Assembly (NCBI GenBank): GCA_964490075.1 | Contig: CAZBBK010000029.1 | Location: 383-64,382 of the forward strand | Direction of reading: 5' to 3' | DNA: 64,000 bases | From: an uncultured Gemmatimonadota bacterium | GTDB lineage: Bacteria; GCA-2686955 | Shown here: positions 12,314-47,014 of the stretch, piece by piece | Numbering within the stretch: the stretch's first letter is position 1 | Layout of the letters: each line of letters begins with the position of its first letter | The notes under the pieces: generated by a model | What the model saw: only the letters and a program-made list of their open reading frames with translations | What the model was told of the DNA's origin: nothing | Databases searched by the model: none | Program-made: the position numbers and the translations under genes

Positions 12314-12325
12314 GCGGTGTCGGCT

Positions 12326-17453: not shown

Positions 17454-17549
17454 CCTTTAGAGCCTATAGGGTCCGCGGTCGCTCCATCCTCTTTTTCCGC
17501 CCTTGCCCCCTTGTGCCGCGCCCTCGGATCGGCTATTCCAGACAGTGCG

Positions 17550-17569
17550 GGTGCGAATAGATGCGCACC
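17550..17569. promoter_or_regulatory. Perfect hexamer inverted repeat GGTGCG-N8-CGCACC, 85 bp upstream of the sigma-54 activator start
   Basis: The sequence is ggtgcgaatagatgcgcacc. A short AT-containing spacer inside a 70% GC context is suggestive of a dimeric regulator operator. Confidence 0.2.
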
Positions 17570-17654
17570 GGCAGCGTTTCCGCAACAATTGGCGCCCCGC
17601 GGTCGAGCGAGTGTACGGCAAGGCTCGCACGAAGGTGGGGTGAAGGGAGGTGAC

Positions 17655-19199
17655 ATGCCCAAAGCGGATCGCCGAATGGAGAGGCAAGAGAGGTTCGTTG
17701 AGTCGTTGACCTCGAAATTCGGGAGGAGACTGGGGGCTTCCCCAGAGAGCCGGCGAGACGAGCTGCTCACCCAGGCGGTGCTCTTCGCCCTGCAGGAAAG
17801 CGGCCTGGACTGGGATCTGGCGCCACGCGCGGCGGCGATCGAGACGGTGACCGGCACCTTGACCGTGCAGACATCGAATCTGAACGCCCCGGTACGTTCC
17901 GAGGTCAGCCGCACGGTGATCAACACGGTGATGCAGACCTGCGAGCCGATCCTGATCACGGAGTCGCCCCAGAGCGACGATTTCCTGAGCTCGACCAGCG
18001 TCACTCAGCTCGGCCTGCAGTCGATTCTCTGCGTGCCGGTCCCACACCCGACGCGGCGCAACCGCGCGATCGCGGTGATCTACTACGACAGTCGCGAGCC
18101 GGGCACCTTCGGGGTCGAGGATCTGGCGTTCCTGGAAGATGTCGTCGACCTCTGCGCGCCGGCATTTCTGGCGCTCGATGCACCCTATCCGGCGCTGCCG
18201 CCCGAGCTGATCCGACACAGCAAGCCCTTCAGTCGCGTGGTGCGCGCCCTGCGGAGGCAGCACAACGCCGGGCGCTCGGTGCTGATCGGCGGCGAGTCCG
18301 GAACCGGCAAGAGCCTGTTGGCCAACTGGCTGCGGGAGCACGGCCCGCGCAGCCAGATCCGCAGCGTGCGCATCGACTGCAGCCGCGGCGAAGAGGTGAG
18401 CGTGAGGCTCTTCGGCCGCGTCCAGGCCGGCATGGGAACCACCACCCGTCGTCGCAGCGCCATCGATGTCGCGCACCGGGGAGCGCTGATCCTGGAGCAG
18501 GTCGACGCTCTCACGCCGGACCTGCAAGCGCGGCTCCTGGCGCGGCTCGAGAGCGAAGAGAACGACGTGGTCATCATCGCCACCGAATCGCGCTCGATCC
18601 CCCGGATGATCGAGGATGGCCGATTCAGCCGCGGTCTTTTCGCGGCCCTCGGGGGGCGCCTCTACGTCGTGCCTCCGCTGCGCAACCGCCCGGAGGATCT
18701 GGAGGCGATCGCCCGCAGCATGATCGAGAGGGCGGGATTCGAGCTCGATCCGGCGCTCTTGGAGGCGCTGGCGGCGCGCTCCTGGCCGGGCAACGTTCGC
18801 CAGCTCGTCGAGACCCTGGAGCAGATGCTGTGGAAGGTCGTGGCGCGCGATCAGCTGGAGCTCAAGGCCGATGCCCTGCCGGCCTCCGCGGCCGAGATCG
18901 AGACCCAGGGCCAGACCACCGAGCCCGTGACCGGCGGCGTCGAGGAGGTCGCCCTGCGACAGCTGCGCGCCACCCTCGACGATCTGCCGATTCTGCCCTT
19001 CCGCCAGGTGGCTTCGGTGGTCTACGCCGCCGCGCTGCAGCGCCATGACGGCAACGTCTCCGCCGCCGCCAGGGCGCTGCGACTCAACCGCAACACCTTC
19101 TACTCGAGGATCGAGAAGGCCGGATTGGAGATCGATCGGACCCGCGACAACACCAACCATCGTGGTGACGAGGTGGCGGTGGAAGCGGAAGAGGAGTAG
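17655..19199 (+). CDS. Sigma-54-dependent transcriptional activator (GAF sensor, AAA+ and Fis-type HTH domains)
   Basis: The AAA+ domain has Walker A (GESGTGKS) and WPGNVRQL motifs. The C-terminal HTH reads GNVSAAARALRLNRNTFYSRI. The N-terminal region is GAF-like. A GGGAGGTG lies 3 nt before the ATG. Confidence 0.8.
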   Translation: MPKADRRMERQERFVESLTSKFGRRLGASPESRRDELLTQAVLFALQESGLDWDLAPRAAAIETVTGTLTVQTSNLNAPVRSEVSRTVINTVMQTCEPILITESPQSDDFLSSTSVTQLGLQSILCVPVPHPTRRNRAIAVIYYDSREPGTFGVEDLAFLEDVVDLCAPAFLALDAPYPALPPELIRHSKPFSRVVRALRRQHNAGRSVLIGGESGTGKSLLANWLREHGPRSQIRSVRIDCSRGEEVSVRLFGRVQAGMGTTTRRRSAIDVAHRGALILEQVDALTPDLQARLLARLESEENDVVIIATESRSIPRMIEDGRFSRGLFAALGGRLYVVPPLRNRPEDLEAIARSMIERAGFELDPALLEALAARSWPGNVRQLVETLEQMLWKVVARDQLELKADALPASAAEIETQGQTTEPVTGGVEEVALRQLRATLDDLPILPFRQVASVVYAAALQRHDGNVSAAARALRLNRNTFYSRIEKAGLEIDRTRDNTNHRGDEVAVEAEEE

Positions 19200-23695: not shown

Positions 23696-24019
23696 CTAGT
23701 CCTGCGGCACGGCGCATTCCGTGGGACCGCTGTGGATGCAGCGCAGCACCTGGCTCACACGAGGCTGGGCGAGGCTGTAGTAGACATGCTGTCCCTCGCG
23801 GCGCCCGGCAACGACGCCGTGCCCTTTGAGGATCGCCAGCTGCTGGCTGGTCTGCGCCTGCGGAAGCTCGGCGCATTCGGCGATCTCGCTCACCCTTGCT
23901 TCGCAGCCATCCTTGAGGAGATCGATGATGCGCAGGCGAACGGGATGCGAGATCGCCCGCAACATCGGGGCGACCGCCCGCAGCAGATCCATCGGAAGAA
24001 GGTCTCGTGGCTCACTCAT
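23696..24019 (-). CDS. ArsR/SmtB-family transcriptional regulator
   Basis: It is a 107-aa winged helix-turn-helix protein (PVRLRIIDLLKDGCEARVSEIAE...QQLAILKGHGVV). It is the first gene of the RND/LolA-like/beta-barrel operon. Confidence 0.75.
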   Translation of the reverse strand: MSEPRDLLPMDLLRAVAPMLRAISHPVRLRIIDLLKDGCEARVSEIAECAELPQAQTSQQLAILKGHGVVAGRREGQHVYYSLAQPRVSQVLRCIHSGPTECAVPQD

Positions 24020-24104: not shown

Positions 24105-26690
24105 CTACTTCTTCCTCTTCTTCTTCCCGCCAAAGAGCCCTTTGAGCCCCTCCAGTCCCTTTTCTTTGAGCTCTTCTACTTCCCGCGTGACCTGCTCCGC
24201 CACCGAGCTGGAATCGTCCTGCCCGGGATCACCCAGCTCTTCGATCAGTCCGCGGCTCAGCTCCCTTGCCTCTTGCTCGGCGCGCTCCTTGAGCTCTGCC
24301 TGCTCGGTCGCGAGGCGGATGCGCGCGGCCTGGGCCGCGGCGTCCGCGACCCGGCGATCGTCGAAGGAGACCCGGGGAGTGAGCGCGGGGCCCGCGATCC
24401 GGATCGGGATCGGGACCGAGCCGCCGCCGCCGGCCAGCGCCGCGAGGGGGGCGGGCAGTCGCTTCTGGATCGCGGCCAGCGCGGAGGCCGGCAGGCGGAC
24501 GTCGAGGGCGAAGTCGAGCACCCCTTCGAGGGAAACTGCGCCGCCACCGGTGAGCGTGATCCCGGCGGCCTCGATCTTCAGATCGTCGAGTGCCAGAGAG
24601 CCATCGTCGATGCGAATCGTCTGCCGCAGATCGGTGGCCCGCAGGGTGGCGAGATCCGGGGTGGCGAGCAGCTTCGCAAGCTCGGCCTGAGCCGGCAGCC
24701 CCTCGATGGCGAGGGCATCGAAGGCCAGGTCGCCGCTGGCGCTCAAGGACGAGAGCTCGATGCCCAAGGTGTCGTCGAAAGCCCCGCGCGCCCGGACCTC
24801 TGCATCACAACTTCCCCCCAGCCCCCCCGCCAGGCCGCCGAAGCCCTCGAAGGCCGGCGAGGAGCGCACCAGCTCTTGGGCCCGCACTCCCTCGAGCGTG
24901 GTCTCGAGATCGTAGCGCGGCGCCTCGGGATCGCTCAGATCGACCTCGCCGGTGGCTTGCACCGATCCCCCGAAGGCGAGCAGATCGGCCGCGACGATGC
25001 GAATACGCCCCGAATCGAGCTCGGCGCTCGCCGCGAGCTGGCGCATCTCGATTTCGTTCGACACCAGGCGGTCGATCTTCAGCGCCAGGCGGCCGTCGAG
25101 CGGGGGCAGCGGCTCGAACCCCTTCGGCGCCGTGGGATCGGGCGGAAAAAGCTGATCGAGGTCGAGGGTGTGGCTGCGCAGGCGGGCATCGAACTGCGCC
25201 CGCGCGCTTTCCTCGTCGAGCCCGGCCAGCGCCAGCGGGCGATCCAGAACGCCGCTCAGCGCCAGGTCGCTGGCGAGGATCGCGAAGTCGAGCTCGTCGA
25301 TCCACAGGCGCTCGGGCGTGAGCCGCAGGCGGGCGTCGAGGTCGCGGATCGGTCCCGGCAGCGAAGGCTCGCTGAGCCAGACGCTGCGCAGCTCGAGCGC
25401 GCCCTCGATCTCGAGCCCCATCGGGTCTGCGATCGGTCCGCCAATCGCCAGCTCCGCGCTCGCCCCACCCTCCAGCCGCAGCGCCTCGGCGGCGGGGTGC
25501 AGGCGCGCCAGCTCTCCGAGCTCGAGCTCGGCATCGATGGTGGCGGCCAGGCGTGCCTCCGCCGTCGGATTCTCGATCTCGGCCCGCACGCTCAGACGAC
25601 TGCCCGCTGCTCGCGCACCGAAGCGCTCCAGATCGAAACGCTCGGGCGTCAGGTGGGCGCGGATCTCGATCTCTTCGATCGCCGCTCCTTGCTCGCCGTA
25701 GGCCACTCGGCCCTGTTCCAGGAGCAGCCTGAGGTCGTAGTCCAGCTCGGCCGCTCCGGCCTCGATGCCCTCATTCCCCACGCCGCCGGCCGCCGACACC
25801 CGCCCCTGCAGCCGCACGCTTCCTCGTGAGCGCGCGTCGGGGGTGATCGGGAAGAGCTCCGCCGGAAGGAAGGCGAAGATCTCGTCGAGCTGGGCCGGCC
25901 CCCCCTCGAAGAGCAGCTCCACGCCGGGCTGCCCCGAGCCGAGTCGCGACACCACACCGTGGAGCGCCACCGGCAGGCCGCCGAGGCGCAGCCTGGCCTC
26001 GTCGATGTGCAAGCGGTCTTCGCCGGTCTCGTAGCGCAGCTCCTTGGAGAGCTCCAGGCGCAGCCCCTGACCCAGCCGCCCCGCGGGTGTGTGCAGCACC
26101 AGCTTCTCGATGCTGCTGCGGCCCTCGAGCTGAATCGTCTGCTGCTCCGGGCTCAGCGCCGCCCGCAGCTCCTCGGAGAAGCCCTCGATCTCCGCCACGG
26201 GTGCGCCCTTCGCGTCCCGGACGTCGATCCGACCCTCCTCGATCCGCAGGCTCTCGACCACGATCGCCAGCGGCAGCGCTCCCTCGCGCGCGGCGCTTCG
26301 CGGCTCGTCCGCACCCGCACCCGCGCCGGCCGCTTCGTCGGCGAGCACGATCTCGAGCTCGGGCCGCTCGATGTCGATGCCGCGCACCACCAGGTTGCCA
26401 CGCAGCAGGGGCGGCAGGGCCAGCTCGAGCGCCACGCTCGCCACCCGCACCAGGGGCGCACCCGGGGCCGCGCTCTCGCCGACGCCGAGATCCTCGAGGC
26501 GCAGCCGCAGGCCGCCGATCAGGCCGAGCGACACATCGCCCACCCTCACCGGCCGCTCGAGCGCCTCGGAGAGGCGCGCCACCGCTAGATCGCGAATGCG
26601 CTCCTCGGGAAAGAAGACCAGCACGAGCGCGACCGCCACCACGGCCGCGCCCGCGATCCAGGCGATGGCTTTGAGCGTTGCCCGCATCAT
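24105..26690 (-). CDS. AsmA-family protein (AsmA/TamB-like outer-membrane biogenesis protein)
   Basis: It has an N-terminal TM anchor (MMRATLKAIAWIAGAAVVAVALVLVFF), a long repetitive beta-rich body with DxxLxLxG-type repeats, and a Lys-rich tail. Confidence 0.7.
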   Translation of the reverse strand: MMRATLKAIAWIAGAAVVAVALVLVFFPEERIRDLAVARLSEALERPVRVGDVSLGLIGGLRLRLEDLGVGESAAPGAPLVRVASVALELALPPLLRGNLVVRGIDIERPELEIVLADEAAGAGAGADEPRSAAREGALPLAIVVESLRIEEGRIDVRDAKGAPVAEIEGFSEELRAALSPEQQTIQLEGRSSIEKLVLHTPAGRLGQGLRLELSKELRYETGEDRLHIDEARLRLGGLPVALHGVVSRLGSGQPGVELLFEGGPAQLDEIFAFLPAELFPITPDARSRGSVRLQGRVSAAGGVGNEGIEAGAAELDYDLRLLLEQGRVAYGEQGAAIEEIEIRAHLTPERFDLERFGARAAGSRLSVRAEIENPTAEARLAATIDAELELGELARLHPAAEALRLEGGASAELAIGGPIADPMGLEIEGALELRSVWLSEPSLPGPIRDLDARLRLTPERLWIDELDFAILASDLALSGVLDRPLALAGLDEESARAQFDARLRSHTLDLDQLFPPDPTAPKGFEPLPPLDGRLALKIDRLVSNEIEMRQLAASAELDSGRIRIVAADLLAFGGSVQATGEVDLSDPEAPRYDLETTLEGVRAQELVRSSPAFEGFGGLAGGLGGSCDAEVRARGAFDDTLGIELSSLSASGDLAFDALAIEGLPAQAELAKLLATPDLATLRATDLRQTIRIDDGSLALDDLKIEAAGITLTGGGAVSLEGVLDFALDVRLPASALAAIQKRLPAPLAALAGGGGSVPIPIRIAGPALTPRVSFDDRRVADAAAQAARIRLATEQAELKERAEQEARELSRGLIEELGDPGQDDSSSVAEQVTREVEELKEKGLEGLKGLFGGKKKRKK

Positions 26691-26707
26691 CGCCAGCGCT
26701 GGACCTC

Positions 26708-27685
26708 TCAGAGGAGGTCTTCGATGGCCTCGCGCTCGGCGCGCAGCTCGGCTTCGCTGGCGTCCATCCGCTCGCGGCTCGGGCCGTCGATCTCGAGCCC
26801 CTGCACGATCTGGTAGCCAGCGTTCTTGCAGGTGACCGGGAACGAGTAGACCACGCCCGGCGCGATGCCGTAGCTGCCGTCGGAGGGAACCGCCATGCTC
26901 ACCCAGTCGTTGGCCGGACTGCCGAGGATCCAGTCGCGCATGTTGTCGATCGCCGCCGACGCCGCCGATGCCGCCGACGAGGCGCCGCGCGCCTTGATGA
27001 TGGCGGCACCGCGCTTCTGCACGGTCGGGATGAACTCGCCGTCGACCCACGCGCCCTCGACCATCCCCTTGGCAAGCTCGCCGCGCACCAGGGTGTGGTT
27101 GATGTCGGGATACTGGGTCAACGAGTGGTTGCCCCAGATGGTCATGCGCCGGATCTCGCCGACGTGGGTGCCGGTCTTCTCGGAGAGCTGGCTCAGCGCC
27201 CGGTTGTGATCGAGGCGGGTCATCGCCGTGATCTGATTCGGCCGCAGATCGGGAGCGTTGCTGGCCGTGATCAGGGCGTTGGTATTGGCCGGATTGCCGA
27301 CCACCAGCACCCGCACCTCGCGGTCGGCGTGGTCGTTCAGCGCCTTGCCCTGGACCGAGAAGATCTTGGCGTTTTCGAGCAGCAGATCGCTGCGCTCCAT
27401 GCCCGGGCCGCGCGGCTTGGCGCCCACCAGGATGGCGTAGTTGGTGTCGCGGAAGGCCACGTTGGGATCATCGGTCGCCACCACGCCGTGCAAGGTGGAG
27501 AAGGCGCAGTCGTTCAGCTCCATGACCACGCCCTGCAACGCGCCGAGCGCCGGGGGAATCTCCAGAAGCTGGAGGATGATCGGTTGCTCGGGTCCGAACA
27601 TCTGTCCCGAGGCGATGCGGAAGGCCAAGGCATAGCCGATCTGACCGGCCGCGCCGGTGATGGCTACGCGGACGGGTTCGTTCAT
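26708..27685 (-). CDS. mdh: Malate dehydrogenase
   Basis: [16 protein letters not shown] is the NAD-binding site. [13 protein letters not shown] and IWGNHS are conserved catalytic motifs. A GGAG lies 9 nt before the ATG. Confidence 0.85.
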
Positions 27686-27822: not shown

Positions 27823-29568
27823 ATGAGCAGCAGGTTGGCGGGGGGCCCCGTGTCCGATTCCCCGACGACATTCTCCGCACCACGGATTCGCAAGCCGCTG
27901 GGTGAGATCCTGGTGCAGCGTGGGCTGGTCAACCCGGCCCAGTTGGAGCGAGCGCTGGCGGTCCAAAGGGACCGGGGCGGCATGCTCGGCCGCGTGTTGG
28001 TCGATCTCGGCCTGATCTCCGATTCCCACTTGGCCGAAATCGTCGCCGAGCAGAGCGGTTTCGACTATCTCGAGCTCAGCGAGATCATCATCGACGGCGA
28101 GGTGGTGGAGATGGTGCCGGGAGAGATGGCCCGGCGCTACAACGTGCTGCCGATCGACATTCGCGACGGCCGCCTGGTGGTGGCGATGTCCGATCCGATG
28201 GACGTCCCGGCCCTGGACGAGCTGCGCATCGCCACCGGTCTCGAGGTCCATCCCTGCATCGCTTCCGAGGGTGCGATCGATCGCGCTCTGGTGCGTCACT
28301 ACGGGGACGAGAACGAATTCTCCCGTCTCTGCGGCGTGCTCGGCGACGAGGAAGAGGGCGAGGGGACATCTGCGGAAGGCGAGGAGATCGCCGAAGCCCC
28401 GGTGGTGAAGCTGGTCGACGTGATCCTCACCACCGCGCTGCGCCGCGGCGCCAGCGACATCCACCTGGAGCCGGAGCGCGACGAGCTGCGGGTGCGCCTG
28501 CGCATCGACGGCACCCTGCACGAGATCCCTTCGCCGCCGCGCCGCTACCGAGCGTCGCTCACCTCGCGCATCAAGATCATGGCCGGCATCGACATCTCGA
28601 AGGCCAGCGTGCCCCAGGACGGACGCTTCGAGATCGAGCTCGGGCGCACCCGAATCGGTGTCCGGGTCTCGACCTTCCCGACCATCTACGGCGAGAACCT
28701 GGTGCTGCGGCTGCTCGATCGCATCGGTGCCCGCCGCGGCCTCGAGCGGCTGGGGCTCGACGAGCAGGATTTGCAGGTGCTGCGCGCCGCCACCGGCCGC
28801 CCCCACGGACTGATCCTCATCACCGGGCCGACCGGCAGCGGCAAGACCGCCACCCTGTACTCCATCCTGCAGGCGATCAACTCTCCCGACAAGAACATCG
28901 CCACGCTCGAGGATCCGGTCGAGTATCCGCTGCCGATGATCCGCCAGGGACAGCTCAACCGCAAGGCGGGGCTCACCTTCGCGAGCGGGCTGCGGGCCAT
29001 CCTCCGGCAGGACCCCGACGTGATCATGGTCGGCGAGATTCGCGACGACGAGACCGCCGAGATCGCGGCCCACGCGGCGCTCACCGGCCACCTGGTGCTG
29101 TCGACGCTGCACTCCAACGACGCCGCTTCCGCCCCCGGGCGCCTGATCCAGATCGGCGTCGCGCCCTACCTGATCGCCACCACCCTGGTGGCGGTGGTGG
29201 CGCAACGCCTGGTGCGCTGCGTCTGTTCGGCCTGCGCGGTGGACGATCCCCTGAGCGCCGACGCCGCCCGCGAGCTGGAGCTCGATCCCGGCATTCGGGT
29301 GCGTCGCGGCAACGGCTGCGGCGAGTGCGACGGGGCCGGGACCTCGGGCCGCGAAGGGGCCTTCGAGGTGCTGCCGATCGACGACGATATTCGGCGCCTG
29401 ATCTTGCGCAAGGCCGATGGCAGCGCCCTGGCGGCGCTGGCGCAGACCAAGGGGATGCGCCGTCTGGAAGATGCGGTGCTGGCCAAGGCGCTCGCAGGGC
29501 GGGTGCCGCTCTCGGAATTCCTGCGGCTGCGTCTCGAGCACCGCATGCCCGAGGAGCGCAGGCGATGA
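27823..29568 (+). CDS. Type II secretion/type IV pilus assembly ATPase (GspE/PilB family)
   Basis: It has a GSPII_E N-terminal domain, Walker A GPTGSGKT, Asp/His boxes, and a tetracysteine cluster (CVCSAC...CGEC). Confidence 0.85.
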
Positions 29569-30785
29569 GCGCGGTCTCCACCTGGGAATACCAGGCCCTG
29601 GACGAGCGCCAGGAGGCGCTTTCCGGTGCGCTCGACGGCGCATCGGCCGACGACGTGGCGCTGCGCCTGGTGGAGATGGGACTCAGGCCCCTGGAGATCC
29701 GCCAACAGGATCCGAACGCCCTTCCGCAGCGTCTCGCCGCCCGCTTTGCGCGTCCCGATCACGCCGGCCTGCTGATGTTCACCCGCGTGCTGCGGGCGAT
29801 GCTCGCCTCGGGAATCCCCATCCAGGCCGCCCTGGCCACCATCGAGGCACAGGTCGCCGGCCAGAAGATCGCCCGGATGGTGCGCGATGTTCGTCTCTCG
29901 GTCGAAGGCGGGAGCCCGCTCTCCGGCGCACTCGCGGCGCGCGGGGCGGCGGTGCCGCGCATCTACTGGGAGATGGTCGCCGCCGGCGAGGAGGCGGGAC
30001 AGCTCGACGTGGTCCTGGCCTGGCTCGGACGCCTTCTCGAGCACGAGATCAAGATCCGGCGCACGGTGCGCACCGCGCTGCGCTATCCGGCGATGGTGCT
30101 GGGAGCGGTCGGACTCGCCTCCCTGGTGGTGCTGACCTTCGTCGTGCCCCGCTTCACCAGTCTCTTCGCCACCATGGGGGCCGATCTTCCCTTGCCGACC
30201 CAGGTGTTGATGGCGGCCGGGGCGCTGATCTCCGATCACCCGCTGGCGCTCTTGATGGGACTGGGCGGCGTGCCGGCGGCTTTCGCCTGGGCACGATCGA
30301 CACGCCTGGGCAAGTGGTACATCGCGCGCGCGGTGCTCGAGATCCCGGTGATCGGAATGGTGGTCGCACAGCTCGAGCTGTCGCGAGTGTCGTTCATTCT
30401 CGAGGTGCTCTTTCGGAGCGGCATTCCCACGGTTCGTGCGGTGGAGCTGGCCGGTCGCACCGCGACCAATCCGGTGATCGAGGCGGAGTTGGCGCAGGTC
30501 GCGCAGGATATCGCCGAAGGGCGAGGCCTGGGTGGATCGTTCGCCGCAAGCAACAGATTTCCTCCGGTGTTCGTGCAGCTGCTGGCGGTTGGCGAAGCAT
30601 CGGGATCGCTCGAAACAATGTTGGCTGATGCGCGCCAGTTCCTCGAAGACGAGGCCGAGGTCAGCGTCAGCAATCTGACGGCGTTGGTCGAGCCCGTGCT
30701 CACGGTGCTCGTCGCGGCGCTGGTGGTCGGCCTGGCGCTGGCCATCTTCCTACCCATGTGGAACATGCCGGGACACATGCTTTGA
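29565..30785 (+). CDS. Inner-membrane platform protein (GspF/PilC family)
   Basis: It has two GspF repeats and three TM helices. Its ATG overlaps the gspE stop (ATGA) and is preceded by GAGGAG. Confidence 0.8.
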   Translation: MSAVSTWEYQALDERQEALSGALDGASADDVALRLVEMGLRPLEIRQQDPNALPQRLAARFARPDHAGLLMFTRVLRAMLASGIPIQAALATIEAQVAGQKIARMVRDVRLSVEGGSPLSGALAARGAAVPRIYWEMVAAGEEAGQLDVVLAWLGRLLEHEIKIRRTVRTALRYPAMVLGAVGLASLVVLTFVVPRFTSLFATMGADLPLPTQVLMAAGALISDHPLALLMGLGGVPAAFAWARSTRLGKWYIARAVLEIPVIGMVVAQLELSRVSFILEVLFRSGIPTVRAVELAGRTATNPVIEAELAQVAQDIAEGRGLGGSFAASNRFPPVFVQLLAVGEASGSLETMLADARQFLEDEAEVSVSNLTALVEPVLTVLVAALVVGLALAIFLPMWNMPGHML

Positions 30786-30808
30786 CCCGGTCTTTCGAAG
30801 GAGTTGTC

Positions 30809-31273
30809 ATGTCGATTCAGAAGATTCGCGATGCCCTGGAGACGCGCCGTCGCCTGCGTGCCCGCGCCGAAGCCGGCTTCACCCTGGTGGAGTTGGTGGT
30901 GGTGGTGGCGGTCCTCGGCCTGCTGGCCGCGGTGGCCATTCCGAAGTATCAGAACATCACCGCCGAGGCCAAGCTCTCGGCCTGCGAGGGGGCTCTGGGC
31001 GGGCTGCGCTCCGGAGTGGCGCTCTTCTACGCCAACTCCGCGGTCACCAATTCCGGATCGGCCTCCTGGCCCAGTCTGGTCGAGCTGCAAGCGGTCGGGA
31101 CGGTGATGATGCAAGAGATCCCCGCCAATCCTTATGCTGGTGACTACGGATCGGTGATCGTTGCCGGCACCACCCGCGGCGTGGTGGTCGAAGCCGATGC
31201 CGGGTGGGCGTACAATGCGACCAGCGGGGAGATCTGGCCCAACACCGACGATGCGGGCGAGAACGAGCTCTAG
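30809..31273 (+). CDS. Type IV pilin / pseudopilin (major subunit candidate) with an unusually long basic leader
   Basis: The leader plus prepilin motif reads MSIQKIRDALETRRRLRARAEAG-FTLVELVVVVAVLGLLAAVAIP. The predicted cleavage is after Gly with Glu at +5. A GAAGGAG lies 5 nt before the ATG. Confidence 0.75.
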   Translation: MSIQKIRDALETRRRLRARAEAGFTLVELVVVVAVLGLLAAVAIPKYQNITAEAKLSACEGALGGLRSGVALFYANSAVTNSGSASWPSLVELQAVGTVMMQEIPANPYAGDYGSVIVAGTTRGVVVEADAGWAYNATSGEIWPNTDDAGENEL

Positions 31274-31440
31274 CTAGGCCACCGGCAGTCCCGAGGGCCG
31301 GTCGCAAGAGGCGCTCCCCAAGTGTCGCTATCGCCTGGCGGCGAGTCGCGAGGCGAGCACCGGTGGGAAGCGGAGGGAGTGCCCTTGCGGCGCTGCTCGG
31401 GACTGGTCGGGATCGCGTGGAGTCCACTGTCGAGTTCCAG

Positions 31441-32988
31441 ATGATGCTGATCAGAACACCGATGCGCAAGCTGCGCACGATGCTCGCCAGACCGCAAGCG
31501 GTCGAGATCGCGCAGCGGATTCGCGAGATCGTGAGCATCGATTTGCCCCGTGGATCGAGCTGGACCGGGGGGCTCGGCGAGCTGGCCCAGCGCCGCTCGT
31601 CGATGCGCTTCGGATTGTGCACCGACGGTGGCCCGGAGGCGGTGACGCTGCGGCGCGGCGTCGATGGCGACACACTGGGCGCGGCGGGACAGTGGGACTC
31701 GGAAGGCGGAGCGCGCTGGCCGCAGGGGGGACGCGCGGCCCCCAGGGGCGTGCACGTGGTCGTCACGGGCTCCGGGATGATCACTCGCAGCACGCGGATC
31801 GCGAGCGGCGTGCGGGGCAATCCAGCGGCCACCGCGCGCTGGGAGATCCTCAGCCAGCTCAAACATCGCAACAAGCGTTTGCCGATCCTGGTGCGCCGGG
31901 AAGAGGACCAGGAGGATCGTTGGACCGCGGTGGCGGTTCCGCGGTCGACGCTGGATGCCGGCGCCCTGCGGTGCCGGGGTCTGAACGCGGTGGAGTACAC
32001 CTTCGCGCCCTTCGCCGCGGCGGCCCTCTCGACTCGGGAGCACCGCGTCCGCGGCGTGGAGCCGCCGGTCGAGCTGGTGCTGCACGTGACCGGCGAGTGG
32101 GCGGTGCTCGGCATCGGTCGCGGCGGGGCACTGGAGATCGTACGCGAGGTCCCGGCGCTGGCACGGCAAGGTTGGACCGAAGAGGGCCTCGGGGATGTGG
32201 TTCGCACCCTGGAGTTCTATCGCTTTCGGATGCGTGGCGACGACATCGCCCGCGTGGTGGTCAGCAAGGAGGATCTGCGCGAGCAGGAGCGGTCCCAGCT
32301 GGAGCGGAGCTTCGCGCGCCCAGTGGTCGACGTCCGCGAGCTGGCATCGAAGGTGATCGGTGAGGCGGTTCCGAGCTCGGCCCGAGCGCTGGCGATCGGA
32401 GCGGCCCTGGCGCCGGGATTCAGAGCGATCGACGAAAGTGTCGCGGCGGCGGGACGGGGCGGCGGCAGGTCCGAGCTGAAGAGGGTGCGCCGCGCGGCGA
32501 TGTTGGCGGCCCTGCCTCTGGCACTGCTCTTGGTGGGCGGCCACCAGTGGAGCCGGGGCAGCCGCGCGAGCGAATCCGCCGCGGCGGTGGAGGCGCGCAT
32601 CGCCAGCATCGAGAGTCGGATCGCGGCCCTGGCCGTGGTGCCGCCGGCACCGGCTCCGGAGCAGCCCGCGCGCCCGCCCGACGCGCTCGACGCCGTGATG
32701 CGGGTCGCGGCCTCGATCCCGGCCGAGATGGTGGCGCAGGAGATCTCCTGCATCTCGGCGACCAACGGCCCGGTCGATGTCGCACCCACGCGCCTCGATC
32801 TGCGCCTTTCGCTGGCCGGGGAAGAACCCGAGACGGCGCTGCGCGCGCTCGATCACTACTTCGACCTTCACGCGGCGGTCGCCGGCTGGAGCTTGCGCTC
32901 CGATCCCGTCGTCGAAGAGACCATGATGGCCGGTGCTCCGGCGATCGATCTGCGGGTCTCCTTCGACACCACCGTGGAGGGACTCTGA
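31441..32988 (+). CDS. GspL-like / PilM-PilN-like bitopic assembly protein
   Basis: It has a ~430-aa cytoplasmic region, one TM helix (AAMLAALPLALLLVGG), and a periplasmic coiled-coil plus ferredoxin-like domain. The start codon is uncertain. Confidence 0.4.
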   Translation: MMLIRTPMRKLRTMLARPQAVEIAQRIREIVSIDLPRGSSWTGGLGELAQRRSSMRFGLCTDGGPEAVTLRRGVDGDTLGAAGQWDSEGGARWPQGGRAAPRGVHVVVTGSGMITRSTRIASGVRGNPAATARWEILSQLKHRNKRLPILVRREEDQEDRWTAVAVPRSTLDAGALRCRGLNAVEYTFAPFAAAALSTREHRVRGVEPPVELVLHVTGEWAVLGIGRGGALEIVREVPALARQGWTEEGLGDVVRTLEFYRFRMRGDDIARVVVSKEDLREQERSQLERSFARPVVDVRELASKVIGEAVPSSARALAIGAALAPGFRAIDESVAAAGRGGGRSELKRVRRAAMLAALPLALLLVGGHQWSRGSRASESAAAVEARIASIESRIAALAVVPPAPAPEQPARPPDALDAVMRVAASIPAEMVAQEISCISATNGPVDVAPTRLDLRLSLAGEEPETALRALDHYFDLHAAVAGWSLRSDPVVEETMMAGAPAIDLRVSFDTTVEGL

Positions 32989-32990
32989 TC

Positions 32991-33626
32991 GTGCTCGCAA
33001 GGCTGTCGTTACGAGAGCGCGCCGCGTTGGCTCTGCTCCTGATGCTGGCGTTCTTCACCGCGCTGGAGATGCTCTACGTCGCGCCGCAGGAAGAGCGGAT
33101 CGCGCGCGCCGAGCGGCGCCTGGGATCGGCCGAGGCCGCCCTGGAGCGTGAGATGGCCAAGGCACAGGCCCGCGCCCTGCTGCCTGACGACGTGCTGCCG
33201 ATGGTGTCGCGTCTGCCCGAGATCGACCGTACCCTGCGCATCGACCGTCTGCCCCATGCCGTGCTCAAGCTGACTCTGGAGGCGCGCCGCCGGGGTCTCG
33301 AGATCGACACGGTGGAGCCGCACTATCTCGAGGTATTCCGCGCCCTGCGCGGTCGTGAGGAAGCCGTCGCGGTGCGCATCGATGCGGTCGGCCGCTGGGA
33401 CCTGCTGCGGGAATACGCCGAGTGGTTGCGCCTCGCTCCGGGCGTGCGTGGCTTCCGCCGGCTGGCGTTTCGCCGCGAGGAGCGCCTGGTCCCACGCATC
33501 AAGATGGAAGCGACATTCGTGCTGGCGGTCGATCCGCAGCTCGCGAAACCACCCGAAGAGGCGACGATCGCCGGCGCGGGGCGCGTCGCCGGTCGATCCC
33601 CCGCTGCGGAGGACCCATCGCTATGA
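32991..33626 (+). CDS. GspM/PilO-like bitopic assembly protein
   Basis: The GTG start lies 2 nt after the upstream stop. It has one TM helix (LALLLMLAFFTALEMLYV) followed by a coiled coil and a small periplasmic domain. Confidence 0.4.
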   Translation: MLARLSLRERAALALLLMLAFFTALEMLYVAPQEERIARAERRLGSAEAALEREMAKAQARALLPDDVLPMVSRLPEIDRTLRIDRLPHAVLKLTLEARRRGLEIDTVEPHYLEVFRALRGREEAVAVRIDAVGRWDLLREYAEWLRLAPGVRGFRRLAFRREERLVPRIKMEATFVLAVDPQLAKPPEEATIAGAGRVAGRSPAAEDPSL

Positions 33627-33994
33627 GTGCACCGAGATCGATCGCAGGGGGCCTGACGGCCATCTGCCTGGGCGCGTCCCTGGCGGCGGCTGCCGCCGGC
33701 GTCGACGCTCCGCAGCTCCGCGCCCGGGACCCCTTCTTGCTCCCGGCCGAGCAGGGCATGGCCCAGCAGGCAACGAAGCAGAGCGACTCCGCGAAGGTCC
33801 GCGTGGAGCGTCCACCCGCGATCGTCGGCTGGGTGCGCAGCGGCGAGGATCTGCGCGCGCTGACTCGCGGCGGCGCGATCGTGCGCCGGGGTGGGACGAT
33901 TTCCGGATGGACCTTGCTCGGCGAGAGCGCCGGTGTACTGACCCTGCAGAAGGGCGATCGCAAGGTCGCGTTGCGCCTGGAGGACAAGAAATGA
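33623..33994 (+). CDS. Small periplasmic pilus/secretion assembly protein (PilP/GspC-like candidate)
   Basis: It has ATGA overlaps on both sides. A signal/TM segment (IAGGLTAICLGASLAAAAAG) is followed by a small domain of ~90 aa. Confidence 0.3.
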   Translation: MSAPRSIAGGLTAICLGASLAAAAAGVDAPQLRARDPFLLPAEQGMAQQATKQSDSAKVRVERPPAIVGWVRSGEDLRALTRGGAIVRRGGTISGWTLLGESAGVLTLQKGDRKVALRLEDKK

Positions 33995-35280
33995 AGCGCA
34001 GCACGAGCCGGGTGTTCCGGCGATCGGTCGTTTTGGCGCTGACGATCTTGGCGAGCGCCGCCGCGCTGCCCGACGCCTTGGCCGCGACACCAGCCACCGG
34101 CGGCCAGACCGTCGACCTCGAGCTGCGCAACGCCGCACTGCGCGACGTGCTGCAGCTCCTGGCGGTGCAGGCCGGGTTCGATGTGGTGCTCGATCAGGAC
34201 CTGGAAGGTCGATTGTCGCTCAGTCTGAGCGACACTCCGGTCATGGGCGCATTCGACGCGGTGCTGCGGTCTCACGGCCTGGACTACACCCGCGAGGGAG
34301 AGGTGATCGTCGTTCGACCGCGCGCCGAGCTGCTCCCCGGTGATGCCGCGTCGCGGGTCTTCCAGTTGCGCTACGCCGACGCCGGGGCGGTCGCCGAGGC
34401 GCTGGCGTCGACCCTCTCCGAGCTCGGCAAGGTGCACGTGCTGCGCGAGGGCCCCCCTGCCCGCAACGCGGCATCGACCAGCCGCTCCCGGACTCTGCTG
34501 GTGAGCGACACGCCGCGCATCCTGGACCGGGTGGCGGCGATCGTCGAGCAGCTCGACCTGCCGCGCAGACAGATCGAGATCGAGGTGCGTTTCGTGGAGA
34601 CCTCGCTCGACAGCGGTCACGATCTGGGCCTGAAATGGGACAACGCCATTTCCTTCGCGGCCGGAGACAGCACGGGGAACGCGAGCATCATGAAGAACAT
34701 CGCGCCGACCAGTGGATTCACCTTCGGCACCCTCTCCGTAGGCGAGCTGGCCGGCACGCTGGAGTTCCTGGCCGAGAGCGGCAGCGCCAACCTGCTCTCC
34801 CATCCCCGGGTACTGGTTCGCGACAACACCGAAGCCCGGATCTCCAGTGGCACCACCATTCCGATCGCGACCATCAACCGCTTCAGCGGCACCGGCGGGC
34901 AGACCCAGGATATCGTCACCTTCCAGGATCGCGACGTGGCGATCGAGCTGGTGGTCACGCCCTGGGTCAACGAGGACGAGCGGGTGACGGTGCGCGTGCA
35001 TCCGCGCGTAGAGGAGATCACCGGCTGGACCGGTCCCCCCGATCAACAGCAGCCGATCACCTCCAAGCGAGAGGTCGAAACCGAGCTGACGGTGGCCAGC
35101 GGCGAGACCATCGCGATGGGGGGTTTGGTGAAGGAGAACGAGCTCGAAACCGTGAAGAAGACCTGGCTCTTGGGTGATATTCCGATCCTGGGTCACCTGT
35201 TTCGCCACACCAGCGTGCAACGCACCAAGACCAATCTGGTGATCTTCATCACTCCGCGACTGCTGGAAGAGACGCTTTGA
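33991..35280 (+). CDS. Secretin (GspD/PilQ family, short form)
   Basis: There is a signal peptide, a secretin N domain, and a C-terminal secretin domain (VRFVETSLD...LLGDIPILGHLF...NLVIFITPRLL). A GGAGG precedes the ATG. Confidence 0.8.
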   Translation: MKRSTSRVFRRSVVLALTILASAAALPDALAATPATGGQTVDLELRNAALRDVLQLLAVQAGFDVVLDQDLEGRLSLSLSDTPVMGAFDAVLRSHGLDYTREGEVIVVRPRAELLPGDAASRVFQLRYADAGAVAEALASTLSELGKVHVLREGPPARNAASTSRSRTLLVSDTPRILDRVAAIVEQLDLPRRQIEIEVRFVETSLDSGHDLGLKWDNAISFAAGDSTGNASIMKNIAPTSGFTFGTLSVGELAGTLEFLAESGSANLLSHPRVLVRDNTEARISSGTTIPIATINRFSGTGGQTQDIVTFQDRDVAIELVVTPWVNEDERVTVRVHPRVEEITGWTGPPDQQQPITSKREVETELTVASGETIAMGGLVKENELETVKKTWLLGDIPILGHLFRHTSVQRTKTNLVIFITPRLLEETL

Positions 35281-36260
35281 GCAGCTCGGCGCGAAGTGTC
35301 GCGGCGGAGCTTCACGATCTGGTGATGGCGGCGGCCGATGTGGGAGCATCGGATCTGCATCTGCGCGGCGGTGGGGCGCCGATCGTGCGCGTCGACGGGA
35401 CGCTGGCAGAGCTTCATTCCACCGCTCTGGAGCGAGCCGAGGTCGCATCACTGGTCCTCGCTCTGGGCGCCGAGCGAGGCCCGGAGCCGGAGCGAGAGGA
35501 CGGCACTTTCGACCTGGCGCTCAACCTCGAGGGCGGGCTGCGCCTGCGGGTGCACGTCTACGAGACTCGCCGCGGGGCGGCGATCGCCGTGCGCCTGCTG
35601 CCGGGACGAATTCCCACCTTGACCGAATGCGGCTTGCCTCCCGAGGTGGCCGCACTGTCGGAGGTGCGGCGCGGATTGGTGGCGGTGTGCGGCGTGACCG
35701 GCAGCGGGAAGTCGACGACCATCGCCGCCCTGGTCGATCAGGCCCGCGCCGACCGCGCGCTGCACGTGGTGACCATCGAGGACCCGATCGAATATGTCTA
35801 CGACTCGCGGCACGGCTTGGTCGGCCAGCGCGAGGTGGGGCGCCACACGCCGGATTTCGCCCAGGCTCTGAAACACGCCCTGCGCGCCGATCCCGACGTG
35901 ATCGTGGTGGGGGAGCTGCGCGATCCCGAGTCGATCGAGCTGGCGCTGATCGCCGCCGAAACCGGTCACGTGGTCTTCGCCTCGGTGCACGCCGGCAGCA
36001 CCGGCGGGGCCGTGGATCGCCTGGTGCACGCGCTGCCGGCGGGGCGCTGGAGCTGCATTCGATCCCAGATCGCCGCGGTGCTGGAAGGCGTCGTCTACCA
36101 GGAGCTGGTGGCGCTGGAGAACCAGCCGGGGCGGCGGGTGGCATGCGAGGTCCTGCGGGCCACACCGGCGGTGCGGCAGATGATCCGCGAGGGCAAGACC
36201 CACCAGATCCCATCGGTGATCGAGGTCTCGTCGGAAGCCGGCATGCGCCCGCTCGGATAG
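35277..36260 (+). CDS. pilT: Twitching-motility/retraction ATPase of the PilT/PilU family
   Basis: GASDLHL, Walker A GVTGSGKSTT, IEDPIEY and VGELRD are all present. The size is ~327 aa with no GspE N-terminal domain. The start is TTG/GTG overlapping the secretin stop. Confidence 0.8.
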   Translation: MSSSARSVAAELHDLVMAAADVGASDLHLRGGGAPIVRVDGTLAELHSTALERAEVASLVLALGAERGPEPEREDGTFDLALNLEGGLRLRVHVYETRRGAAIAVRLLPGRIPTLTECGLPPEVAALSEVRRGLVAVCGVTGSGKSTTIAALVDQARADRALHVVTIEDPIEYVYDSRHGLVGQREVGRHTPDFAQALKHALRADPDVIVVGELRDPESIELALIAAETGHVVFASVHAGSTGGAVDRLVHALPAGRWSCIRSQIAAVLEGVVYQELVALENQPGRRVACEVLRATPAVRQMIREGKTHQIPSVIEVSSEAGMRPLG

Positions 36261-36333
36261 CCGACGGCTCCCCTCCGCGCCCCGTGCTACGCTTGGACCT
36301 TCGCAGTGCCACCGCGACCCTGGAGACCCACTG

Positions 36334-36825
36334 ATGACCGAGATCGACCCGGAGCCGGGAACCCTCGAAACCGACCGCATCGAGGTCCGCGCGCTGCAGC
36401 CGAGCGACCTGGATTGGGTGATTCGAATCGACCAGGAGCGCACCGGTCGCGCCCGGAGCGAGTACTACCGGGTCAAGTTTCACGAGGCGGAAAGCGATAC
36501 CGGAGTGCGCATCTCGCTGGCCGCCACGATCGACTCCGACCCGGCGGGCTTCCTCATGGGGCGCCTCTACTACGGAGAGTTCGGGCTGCCCGAAGCGGTC
36601 GCGGTGCTCGATTCGATCGGCGTGGTGCGCGCTCACGGTGGCAAGCAGGTCGGTCGCGCGCTGATGCGCCAGCTCTCGATGAACCTGGCGGCGCTGCGCA
36701 TCGAGAAGGTGCAGACCCAGGTGGAGTGGGACGATGCCGAGCTGATCGGCTTCTTCCGGCACTTCGGCTTCCGCCCCGCCTCGCGCCTCTGCCTGGAGAT
36801 GTCGGTCGAGCCCCCCAACGAGTGA
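36334..36825 (+). CDS. GNAT-family N-acetyltransferase
   Basis: The acetyl-CoA binding motif is VVRAHGGKQVGRALMRQL (Q/RxxGxG/A), within a ~160-aa protein. Confidence 0.7.
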   Translation: MTEIDPEPGTLETDRIEVRALQPSDLDWVIRIDQERTGRARSEYYRVKFHEAESDTGVRISLAATIDSDPAGFLMGRLYYGEFGLPEAVAVLDSIGVVRAHGGKQVGRALMRQLSMNLAALRIEKVQTQVEWDDAELIGFFRHFGFRPASRLCLEMSVEPPNE

Positions 36826-36827
36826 GG

Positions 36828-37997
36828 CTACTGCCCGATCCCGGTGGTCCCGAAGGACATCGTCGAGCCATCGCTGAAGTCGAGCTCGAACTCGACGCCA
36901 CGCATGTCGACCGGATCCCCATGGTAGTTGGGACGGTTGCGGAAATGCTCGATCTTGATCTCCACGTTCGAGCCGGCGCGGATCACCGGGAACACACCCC
37001 GCACCGCCTCTCCGGAGCCGTAGCGGGCCTGCGGTGAGTTGGCGACCAGAGTAGCGTCGACGGTCACCCGTTGGAAATACGCGGTTTTCTCGTAGCTGCA
37101 GACGAGGTAGTCGAGCTCGATGTCGATCTCGCTGGTGTTGAGCACCCGGAACACCAGTTTGTTGTTCTGAGGACCGGTGATCAGCGCGCTTCCTTCGACG
37201 TACTCCAGCGCGGTCAAGCCCGATCCGCCCTGTGAGGGCCAGGTGAACCCGAAGAGCAGATCCTGATGCGTGGCCCGTCCGGGATACACGGTCAGGTCGA
37301 CAGAAACAGTGTCGCTCAGAAGGCCCTGCTCGAGTGCAGCGTACACTGTATGTCGACCGATCGGAACCTCTGAGTCGAAAGTGTAGCGTCCGGAAGGATC
37401 GACATCGACCGCCGACAGGAGCTCGGAACCGACGCCGTCCGGATAGCTCATCCAGACCGACAGATTGACGTAGGAGTATCCGGGGGGCGAAGCGGCGGCG
37501 TCGCGCAGCGTGCCCGTGACGGTGTTGTAGAGCAGCGCCGCCTCGTTCGACGCCAGCATCAGCGTCAGCTCCTCTCCCTCGGCGCCGCCTTCGCTCGAGA
37601 GCATGGTGCCCGCATAGCCATAGTCGTCGCCCCAGGCGTCGCGCGCGTGACCGTACTGATCCTCCTCGAAGCGCGCGAGATAGGGTCCCCCCCAGGTCGC
37701 CAGACCGGGGTGCTCCACCAGGTCGTCGAGGGTGGAGGGCAGCGCGCCGATATCGCCGACATACCCGAAGTCGATGCGCGAGCCGCCCTCGATCAGCCGC
37801 GCGTCGCCGACGATGGCGCGCGCGATTTCCTCCATCTCCGCGGCGGTCGCTTCGAAGCGCTTGCGATCCAGCGAAGGCTGCATGGTGCGCAGCGCGGTGC
37901 CGGCGAAGATCGAGATCATCACCATCACCAGCAGCACCTCGATGAGGGTGAAGCCGCCGCCGGAGCACGGCGCGTCAGAACGACATCTGGATGACAT
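36828..37997 (-). CDS. Large pseudopilin/minor pilin with a prepilin N-terminus and a GspG-like motif
   Basis: The N-terminus reads MSSRCRSDAPCSGGG-FTLIEVLLVMVMISIFAG. WGGPYLARFEEDQYGHARDAWGDDYGY resembles the GspG PW-GNPY signature. It is 389 aa. Confidence 0.6.
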   Translation of the reverse strand: MSSRCRSDAPCSGGGFTLIEVLLVMVMISIFAGTALRTMQPSLDRKRFEATAAEMEEIARAIVGDARLIEGGSRIDFGYVGDIGALPSTLDDLVEHPGLATWGGPYLARFEEDQYGHARDAWGDDYGYAGTMLSSEGGAEGEELTLMLASNEAALLYNTVTGTLRDAAASPPGYSYVNLSVWMSYPDGVGSELLSAVDVDPSGRYTFDSEVPIGRHTVYAALEQGLLSDTVSVDLTVYPGRATHQDLLFGFTWPSQGGSGLTALEYVEGSALITGPQNNKLVFRVLNTSEIDIELDYLVCSYEKTAYFQRVTVDATLVANSPQARYGSGEAVRGVFPVIRAGSNVEIKIEHFRNRPNYHGDPVDMRGVEFELDFSDGSTMSFGTTGIGQ

Positions 37998-38442
37998 TTT
38001 CGGGATTCTGGCTGGTGAGGGTTCTGGCGCTGGCGTCGTACTCGTAGTCGAGACCCCAGGCGTCGGTGGTGATGGCTTCGATGTCGTCCTCCAGGTAGGG
38101 ACCGTTCCAGCCCAGCCCGGTGAAGCGGTCGAAGGCCGAAACGCCCTCGGGAGGATCGACCAGCGCCTCCAGGTCGGGCGGTGGTGCCCCCAGGTCGTTC
38201 TCGTAGCCGGTGCGCTCGGATTGCGAGTCGCCGACGATCGCCCCGATGATGATCTGCATCTCGCGGCGCGTGGCGCTCTCCTTGCCGCTGGAGATCACAT
38301 CGCCCAGGTGGGGCAGCGCGACGGCGGAGAGCAGCCCCAGCACCACGATGACCACCACGATCTCCACCACGGTGAATCCGCTGGTGGCGTGACGGGCCGC
38401 GGCCGGCTGGCTTCTGGTTCTCTGATCACGAGGTCGATGCAC
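37975..38442 (-). CDS. GspG-like pseudopilin
   Basis: It contains SG-FTVVEIVVVIVVLGLLSAVALP and GWNGPYLEDDIEAITTDAWGLDYEYD. A GTG start at 38442 leaves an 83-bp divergent promoter region with the GDPD gene. An alternative GTG lies at 38556. Confidence 0.6.
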   Translation of the reverse strand: MHRPRDQRTRSQPAAARHATSGFTVVEIVVVIVVLGLLSAVALPHLGDVISSGKESATRREMQIIIGAIVGDSQSERTGYENDLGAPPPDLEALVDPPEGVSAFDRFTGLGWNGPYLEDDIEAITTDAWGLDYEYDASARTLTSQNPENVIQMSF

Positions 38443-46963: not shown

Positions 46964-47014
46964 TCCACCTGGTTATCCTGGACGTATCGCCTCACTTTGC
47001 CCACAGAGGATCCG

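Follow-up and report, generated by a model that had tools for sequence, protein, structure and literature searches.

A compact, translationally coupled type IV filament gene cluster with pilT in an uncultured Gemmatimonadota bacterium

The gene cluster

We have analysed a cluster of type IV filament genes in an uncultured Gemmatimonadota bacterium. It lies at positions 27823-38442 of a 64,000-nt stretch of contig CAZBBK010000029.1 (assembly GCA_964490075.1), which we call the window, and the same DNA is also found in several marine metagenome assemblies. The G+C content of the window is about 69% and lists of its open reading frames (ORFs) are therefore full of spurious frames. The GC bias at third codon positions, and gene calls made independently on metagenome contigs of identical sequence, both point to 11 genes for the cluster, one more than was counted in an earlier reading of this DNA made from the sequence alone. 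All 11 ORFs are intact, with a strong third-position GC bias, and the Pfam and NCBIfam domain matches for the cluster are far above chance level. The genes are as follows (aa, amino acids).

27823-29568, plus strand: assembly ATPase, PilB/MshE-type by its N-terminus, 581 aa (Pfam T2SSE 1e-120; MshEN, PF05157, 4.4e-22)
29565-30785, plus strand: inner-membrane platform protein, PilC/GspF, 406 aa (Pfam T2SSF 1.1e-46, two repeats)
30809-31273, plus strand: probable major pilin, 154 aa (N_methyl 7.7e-07)
31441-32988, plus strand: PilM-PilN fusion (PilMN), 515 aa, up to 541 (family profile A4)
32991-33626, plus strand: PilO-like bitopic protein, 211 aa (family profile against PilO)
33623-33994, plus strand: small periplasmic protein resembling PilP and the homology region (HR) of GspC, 123 aa (hhalign to family)
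33991-35280, plus strand: short secretin, 429 aa (Pfam Secretin 2.4e-44, Secretin_N 6.9e-11, STN 6.5e-08)
35277-36260, plus strand: PilT retraction ATPase, 327 aa (TIGR01420 331.6 bits, cut-off 319.1)
36334-36825, plus strand: GNAT acetyltransferase, 163 aa (Acetyltransf_1 8.3e-09)
36828-37997, minus strand: large modular minor pilin pp1, 389 aa (N_methyl and T2SSG matches, both below cut-off)
37975-38442, minus strand: small GspG-like minor pilin pp2, about 155 aa from GTG 38442 (TIGR01710 GspG, below cut-off)

The sequence-only reading had described a compact, translationally coupled type IV filament cluster, and this holds good: the genes lie where it placed them and the start and stop overlaps are present. 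There are 4-nt ATGA overlaps at the ATPase-platform junction, where the ATG of the platform gene overlaps the ATPase stop codon, and at the junctions of the PilO-like with the PilP-like gene and of the latter with the secretin gene. The fourth overlap is TTGA, the TTG start of pilT overlapping the secretin stop codon. PilMN and the PilO-like gene are separated by 2 nt, and pp2 overlaps the start of pp1 by 23 nt. The pp1 and pp2 genes had been called divergent; both, being on the minus strand, point towards the operon. Prepilin N-terminal motifs are seen in three of the cluster proteins. A sigma-70 promoter and terminator scan found none inside the cluster, and a search for sigma-54 promoters gave results no better than chance.

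Motor, secretin and PilT

The ATPase has a tandem MshEN motif, followed by the rest of the MshEN domain and then a T2SSE core with CxxC...CxxC. The two 24-residue copies of the motif, at aa 25-48 and 54-77 and 5 residues apart (window 27895-28053), pass the NF053729 model for the cyclic di-GMP (c-di-GMP) motif with 66.7 bits for a cut-off of 38. The best of the NCBIfam ATPase models is TIGR02538 (PilB), which is matched near end-to-end at 546.2 bits, followed by GspE at 521; both scores are below the respective cut-off (675.65 for PilB). Among solved structures in the PDB the full-length protein scores 530 bits against Thermus PilF, 437-451 against the PilB proteins of Geobacter and Myxococcus, and 346 against full-length GspE; the match to BfpD is weak (91 bits). 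On account of its N-terminus the ATPase appears to be PilB/MshE-like, and c-di-GMP binding is plausible. The platform protein matches Myxococcus xanthus PilC at 198 bits in the PDB, and scores 57.7 bits with the Thermus PilC N-domain as against 40 with that of GspF.

The secretin has a signal peptide without a lipobox, an N0 (STN) domain, one N domain and the secretin domain, which is the PilQ/HofQ core (N0-N1-secretin) without AMIN domains. It matches the PilQ model (TIGR02515) from end to end at 231.3 bits (cut-off 284.35), and the GspD model (TIGR02517) over model positions 302-591 of 600 only, at 210.6 bits (cut-off 351.35). The MshL model (TIGR02519) gives 130.5 bits (cut-off 250.2), lower than either. 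In the PDB its best match is Neisseria PilQ, 135 bits over aa 37-425, with the top GspD at 121 bits.

In PilT the Walker A, Asp box, Walker B and His box motifs are intact, as is the AIRNLIRE-like motif (here AVRQMIRE). These are visible in the alignments with PilT proteins in the PDB, which score 232-252 bits. Model PilT proteins extend about 25 aa further at the C-terminus.

The alignment proteins

The protein that follows the major pilin had been described as GspL-like, its neighbour as GspM-like, and a PilM/N/O/P quartet of the classical kind as absent. None of this is upheld. The quartet of the type IVa pilus (T4aP) alignment subcomplex is present, with PilM and PilN fused and all members very divergent, and its detection needed family profiles.

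In the case of PilMN the window protein alone has no match in Pfam or NCBIfam. A word search of 5.8 billion sequences and a HMMER search of 1.84 billion representatives found only one other cluster, with 60% identity, and BLASTP against the positional equivalent in locus L009 gave no match. The assignment needed a profile, A4, made from 15 positional equivalents of 520-575 aa from syntenic loci of the family described below. The 15 members are 11-30% identical to the first sequence of the alignment and keep a PilM-typical motif. In the PDB the profile matches PilM of M. xanthus (3jc8_M, 1.5e-29), Thermus (8e-20) and Pseudomonas aeruginosa (2.5e-12), with a weak, non-significant PilN match at the correct position, and Pfam recognises PilM_2 in 8 and PilN in 9 of the 15 members. 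The window protein aligns to A4 by hhalign with 95.5% probability (E 1.6e-8, 397 columns). As A4 matches PilM and PilN and the window protein aligns to A4, the 515-aa protein is a natural PilM-PilN fusion, with a cytoplasmic actin-like PilM part, one transmembrane helix at about aa 380-395 (counted from GTG 31363) and a periplasmic PilN-like domain. The start is placed at ATG 31441, although gene callers also use GTG 31363 or GTG 31417. There is no match to GspL. In reviews the counterpart of GspL is taken to be PilM together with PilN (PMC4471445), and the fusion is GspL-like in topology and PilM/PilN by sequence.

With regard to the 211-aa protein, a profile that includes it matches PilO of M. 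xanthus at 5.5e-8 and of P. aeruginosa at 0.0035. The window and sister sequences together align to the rest of the family by hhalign with 79.9% probability (E 1.4e-5). The match to Pfam T2SSM is below cut-off (E 0.04; 14.6 bits, cut-off 27.8).

The 123-aa protein has an RDPF motif and a C-terminal beta domain, and aligns to its family by hhalign with 96.4% probability (E 1.3e-9). Among 15 family members Pfam finds CdsD_C in nine, T2SSB in seven and T2SSC in four. The family profile has no significant match in the PDB, where only designed kelch proteins came up, and the window protein alone has no PDZ domain and no GspC match in Pfam or NCBIfam. We regard it as a putative equivalent of PilP and the GspC HR domain, and as the least certain of the three assignments.

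Pilins

The probable major pilin has a 23-aa leader ending in AEAG/FTLVE (the stroke marks the predicted cleavage site), a mature part of 131 aa with an F1/E5 N-terminus, and a conserved acidic C-terminus (GWAY..G.IWPNT..EN). It is matched by 337 protein clusters at E<=1e-10, and some JGI records name it MshA. The long leader reported in the sequence-only reading is real but is not a family trait, as the leaders of relatives are 6-13 aa and the 23-aa leader is peculiar to the clade of the window. A type IVb pilus, which would combine a long leader with a large mature pilin, a variable residue at position 1 and BfpC/TcpR-type accessory genes, was considered and rejected, given the short leaders of relatives, a mature pilin of only 131 aa and the F1/E5 N-terminus.

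Downstream of the major pilin stop codon there is a long, imperfect RNA hairpin at 31282-31412 on the plus strand (minimum free energy -90.6 kcal/mol, z = -2.1), which overlaps the alternative GTG 31363 start of PilMN. It might set the ratio of pilin to machinery expression.

Both minor pilins carry the GspG-type motif noticed earlier (GPYL...DAWGxDYxY). In pp1 a 15-aa leader is followed by a GspG-like module (DFGYVGDIG ... GPY ... DAWGxxYxY) and two beta-sandwich domains. It has 258 homologues, many from Zixibacteria and many named PulG/GspG-like. The AlphaFold2 (AF2) model of pp1 has a pLDDT of 81.7, and in Foldseek its C-terminal part resembles CnaB, CarboxypepD_reg and Ig-like sandwiches, with low whole-chain TM-scores; this suggests that pp1 may be a modular tip pilin. 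The start codon of pp2 was picked by likeness to its orthologue in L008, a locus discussed below, and gives a leader ending in ATSG/FTVVE. It matches TIGR01710 (GspG) at 43.4 bits over 1-106 of 134, under the cut-off of 88.85. The pp2 orthologues at L006 5674-6261 (minus strand) and L008 4291-4746 (minus strand) have Ala at position -1 of the predicted cleavage site (AA/FTV), where the window has the canonical Gly.

The wider operon family and the distribution of pilT

The family was delineated from the loci of pp1 homologues and from a metagenome scan that returned 80 loci, annotated by phmmer. At least 15 long metagenome loci, some of them named Zixibacteria, share one collinear operon. The order is ATPase (MshEN plus T2SSE), platform, major pilin, small GspG-like pilin, large pilin, PilMN, PilO, PilP-like protein and secretin. 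PilMN is 520-575 aa in these operons, the PilO-like protein about 190 aa, the PilP-like protein about 150 aa and the secretin 426-554 aa (mostly about 430). The same operon is also collinear in L009 and in L091, a contig of 3.98 Mb in which the large pilin is not in the operon. The pp2 orthologue directly follows the major pilin gene in family operons; in the window the two minor-pilin genes have been moved behind the secretin and inverted, and pilT has been added.

In a second and common type of locus, about four genes in tandem encode paralogues of the large modular pilin with its GspG-like module, one of them with Laminin_G_3/DUF2341. It was found in L010, L049, L053, L056-L058, L060-L063, L071-L073, L081, L085 and L090. 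No ATPase, platform or secretin gene lies within 10 kb of these tandem genes, which are probably detached minor-pilin operons of the same family.

The closest relatives are few. The one PilMN relative at 60% identity was located on the TARA contig L006 and on L007. A secretin scan of one genome per species gave one locus, L008, from a Gemmatimonadota metagenome-assembled genome that is the closest named genome. The order in L008 is PilO-like (partial), PilP-like, secretin and PilT, then two minor pilins on the opposite strand. Its PilT is 331 aa and is coupled to the secretin gene by GTGA. In comparison with L008, the pilT of L006 and L007 has lost 527 bp internally and is broken, with only N- and C-terminal fragments left in different frames. 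The deletion is seen in two independent assemblies, at L006 3825-4681 and L007 3801-4657 as compared with L008 1901-3298. Only in the narrow clade of the window do pilT and the GNAT gene adjoin the operon, and PilT characterises this small clade, in which one loss has already occurred.

In L008 the two minor pilin genes are immediately followed by a gene for an 815-aa Trypsin_2 protein with a signal peptide (5158-7605, minus strand), of which there is a partial copy at L006 6306-7391 (minus strand). No homologue of it was found in the window. It could be a substrate of the system or a mere neighbour.

To our knowledge there is no description of this operon family in Zixibacteria or Gemmatimonadota, and our search of the literature found none. 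What is new is the family architecture (PilM-PilN fusion, three pilins, short secretin, single operon), its spread in Zixibacteria, Gemmatimonadota and relatives, and the gain and loss of pilT on a local scale. Neither the parts of the machine nor its principle are new.

Comparison with T4aP and type II secretion systems

All functional classes of T4aP are present in the window (PilB, PilC, PilM, PilN, PilO, PilP, PilQ and PilT), and the top solved-structure matches for the full-length ATPase, platform, PilM, PilO and secretin are all T4aP proteins. PilT is identified by a curated cut-off, the pilins are of the F1/E5 type and the mature major pilin is small. The differences from T4aP are also clear. 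PilM and PilN are fused, the secretin has no AMIN domains, and nine to ten genes are in one locus. There are only three pilins, with no set of the FimU-PilVWXE/PilY1 type, and both minor pilins resemble GspG. The major pilin is without a disulfide D-region and unusually well conserved, leaders have 15-23 aa, and the PilB, PilC and PilQ cut-offs are missed.

The canonical type II secretion system (T2SS; GspC-O) has in common with the window an ATPase, a platform, the GspG-like pilin motif, an HR-type small protein and a secretin. PilMN is bitopic with GspL-like topology, and the ATPase core is equally near to GspE and PilF. In contrast the window has no GspC with PDZ, no GspH/I/J/K and no GspN. 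NCBIfam models for GspI, J and K find no equivalents among the cluster proteins, which include three pilins only. After N0 the secretin has a single N domain, as against N1-N3 in GspD, and an S domain was not detected. The N-terminus of the ATPase is of MshEN type, and PilT is present. GspC, with HR plus PDZ or coiled coil, is mandatory in the final TXSScan model for T2SS (PMC6668835). We have rejected membership of T2SS, as GspC, GspL/M, GspH-K and a multi-N-domain GspD are all wanting and there is a PilT.

The sequence-only reading had seen T2SS-like parts mixed with PilT. Among solved structures the full-length ATPase, platform and secretin each score slightly higher against T4aP than against T2SS proteins, and the supposed GspL and GspM are better accounted for by the PilM-PilN fusion and PilO. 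It is thus not surprising to find PilT here, since most components lean to T4aP. The same reading placed the cluster outside any canonical subtype, and we agree: no core protein other than PilT passes an NCBIfam equivalog or subfamily cut-off. The system appears to sit in the part of the superfamily that holds T4aP, T2SS and the mannose-sensitive haemagglutinin (MSH) pilus, leaning to T4aP on most components, and it is no clean member of canonical T4aP, T2SS or MSH. In the classification of Denise et al. 2019 hundreds of systems remained 'generic' (PMC6668835).

Interpretation

We think it likely that the cluster encodes a compact filament machine of T4aP lineage, complete but for the prepilin peptidase, with a c-di-GMP-responsive PilB, a conserved pilin, a conduit of PilMN, PilO, PilP and PilQ, and, in this lineage, retraction by PilT. 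A PilB/MshE-type hexameric ATPase with a tandem MshEN c-di-GMP-binding motif would drive the PilC platform, which would polymerise the small and very conserved major pilin. The two paralogous GspG-like minor pilins probably prime assembly, and the large modular pp1, with its two beta-sandwich domains, may sit at the tip as adhesin or cap. The PilMN fusion, the PilO-like protein and the protein resembling PilP and GspC-HR would connect the motor to the short PilQ-core secretin, and pilT, translationally coupled to the secretin gene, would supply retraction in this lineage. The filament is probably c-di-GMP-gated and retractile here, and the result may be a dynamic pilus, able to retract and used in adhesion, motility on surfaces or DNA uptake. 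Vibrio cholerae offers a precedent, in that its MshE is a c-di-GMP-binding protein and its MSHA pilus is a target of a PilT from another locus (PMC4624765).

Several observations weigh against this interpretation. PilT is alone among the core proteins in reaching its cut-off, and the platform scores higher with the NCBIfam model for GspF (297 bits) than with those for PilC (246 and 236; PilC cut-off 700), all under cut-off. The catalytic core of the ATPase ties between PilF and GspE at about 338 bits each in the PDB. The first residues of its two MshEN motifs are P and M, where relatives have R or K. In MshEN the arginine at the first position contacts c-di-GMP, and with P and M there binding may be weaker. 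The AF2 model of PilMN, from an alignment of three sequences, is unusable (pLDDT 39.8), so that its fold is deduced from profile comparisons. There is a single Cys in the major pilin, hence no disulfide D-region, and this pilin is the best-conserved component of the family. Its median identity to the window protein is 52%, and the ATPase (43%), secretin (38%) and platform (33%) all fall below this. In its conservation and lack of a D-region it resembles the T2SS pseudopilin GspG more than it does the T4a pilins exposed at the surface. The two minor pilins are paralogues with a common GspG-like module. Finally there is the broken pilT of L006 and L007, and in the 15 or more long family loci no pilT lies within 10 kb (nor does a GNAT or prepilin peptidase gene). 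As most loci have no pilT within that distance and a sister lineage has lost it, retraction is not a trait of the family.

The main rival is that of a Cytophaga-like secretion endopilus. The cluster would then build a short endopilus in the periplasm and serve secretion, and would have arisen from T4aP separately from the proteobacterial T2SS, with PilT as a secondary addition. The conserved major pilin without a disulfide loop, the GspG-like minor pilins, and the absence of pilT near most family operons would fit this, as would the matches of the small protein family to the HR-type domains T2SSC, T2SSB and CdsD_C, and the trypsin-like protease with a signal peptide next to the minor pilin genes in L008 and L006. 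There is also a precedent in the Bacteroidetes "T2SS" of Cytophaga hutchinsonii (chu_3191-3201), from the same broad superphylum. Denise et al. 2019 found that it clusters with T4aP and not T2SS, and suggest that it may be a novel secretion system of independent derivation (PMC6668835). It too is a compact cluster with few minor pilins, and has PilMNOP-like proteins and a G-like pilin (PMC5553014), the former detectable by profile only, as in the window; the lack of pilT in most family loci is a further likeness. However this likeness is one of description and not of sequence comparison, and the Cytophaga cluster has its own prepilin peptidase and another gene order. In the window as in L008, start and stop codons couple the secretin gene to that of a bona fide, apparently intact PilT. 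Canonical T2SS have no PilT. There is no GspC with PDZ, GspH-I-J-K set or multi-N-domain GspD, and the protease neighbour is not in the window. On balance we consider a secretion machine unlikely.

The MSH pilus is a further rival. A member of that class would have MshE, a fused GspL/PilN-like MshI, a PilO-like MshJ, a small MshK and MshL, with PilT supplied separately. In the MSH system of Vibrio cholerae MshE binds c-di-GMP, MshI resembles GspL/PilN, MshJ resembles PilO, and the MSHA pilus is acted on by a PilT encoded elsewhere (PMC4624765); the prepilin peptidase of MSH loci is encoded apart (PMC6668835). The window shares the MshEN domain, with an MshE-related c-di-GMP motif above cut-off, a fusion of PilM/N type followed by a PilO-like and a small protein ahead of the secretin, a locus without a peptidase, and the MshA name given to the major pilin in some JGI records. 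Against this, the secretin is nearer to PilQ and GspD than to MshL by a wide difference in bit score, the fused protein matches PilM by sequence, and the order of genes and the much smaller set of three pilins are unlike the mshI-F then mshB-Q arrangement. The pilT gene is inside the operon. No MshM-like gene of the ExeA/AAA_22 type was found in the cluster or flanks and no MshN (TPR) gene in the cluster, while mshM is mandatory in the TXSScan MSH model (PMC6668835). MSH is moreover a system of Gammaproteobacteria, and the present family is from Gemmatimonadota and Zixibacteria. MSH membership was rejected for want of MshL and MshM, despite the MshE-type ATPase with MshEN, and we hold it to be very unlikely. 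Still less credible is a cluster in decay or without function, or a set of genes related to type IV pili brought together by chance, that no longer builds a machine. The broken pilT in L006 and L007 would be in keeping with decay, and PilMN, PilO and the PilP-like protein are too divergent for single-sequence searches. However all 11 ORFs are intact with their third-position GC bias, start/stop coupling and catalytic motifs are kept, and gene set and order are maintained across very divergent organisms.

It is possible, although we think it rather doubtful, that within a T4aP-lineage origin the operon family is a distinct branch of type IV filaments, derived from T4aP on its own and of a rank like that of MSH or the Bacteroidetes "T2SS", with the window capturing the gain of pilT and its sister the loss. 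If so, it would offer a natural switch between PilT-less states, of secretion or adhesion type, and PilT-driven retractile states.

The classification of type IV filaments has been built mostly on Proteobacteria and Firmicutes. The locus anchors a compact single-operon family in uncultured phyla, to which the window itself adds only the PilT variant, and there is no new principle in the system. A natural PilM-PilN fusion with GspL-like topology that is yet PilM/PilN by sequence bears on the origin of GspL-like proteins. The small defined set of nine to ten genes plus peptidase could be rebuilt in a heterologous host and would show the minimum needs for assembly and retraction.

GNAT, prepilin peptidase and neighbouring genes

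The GNAT gene between pilT and pp1 is specific to this lineage, and we regard it as a neighbour of the machine, of which it is no conserved part. Its product has only a weak generic match in NCBIfam. The segment that holds the gene (window 36248-36851) has no counterpart in L008, and no GNAT gene was found in L006, L007, L008 or the loci of the wider family. As the gene is confined to the window's own contigs we place it outside the machine. The suggestion that it modifies pilin N-termini is unsupported, and we have rejected a role in pilin modification because the gene is not conserved across relatives: it is missing from both of the closest lineages and from every locus of the wider family.

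The cluster has no prepilin peptidase, as the sequence-only reading said. Pfam gives no Peptidase_A24 match among the called genes scanned in the 64-kb window, a scan that did not extend to a 107-aa ORF at 23696-24019 (minus strand), and for four window genes the Pfam annotation came from a contig look-up only. A crude regular expression for the prepilin-peptidase motif found none in the window, and there is none near the family operons. The peptidase must be encoded elsewhere in the genome.

Some other genes of the window might be related to the pilus system. They are an AsmA-family gene at 24105-27050 (minus strand), two genes upstream of the cluster, an EAL-domain c-di-GMP phosphodiesterase gene at 2137-3303 (plus strand) and a GAF-sigma54 activator gene at 17511-19199 (plus strand). 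A 2025 paper describes the T2SS protein GspN as AsmA-like. Unrelated to the pilus cluster are a gene for a 1050-aa protein with Malectin, CotH kinase and Lamin-tail domains at 46997-50149 (plus strand), and two adjacent genes at 10571-13918 (plus strand) for large proteins that end in FlgD_ig-type domains.

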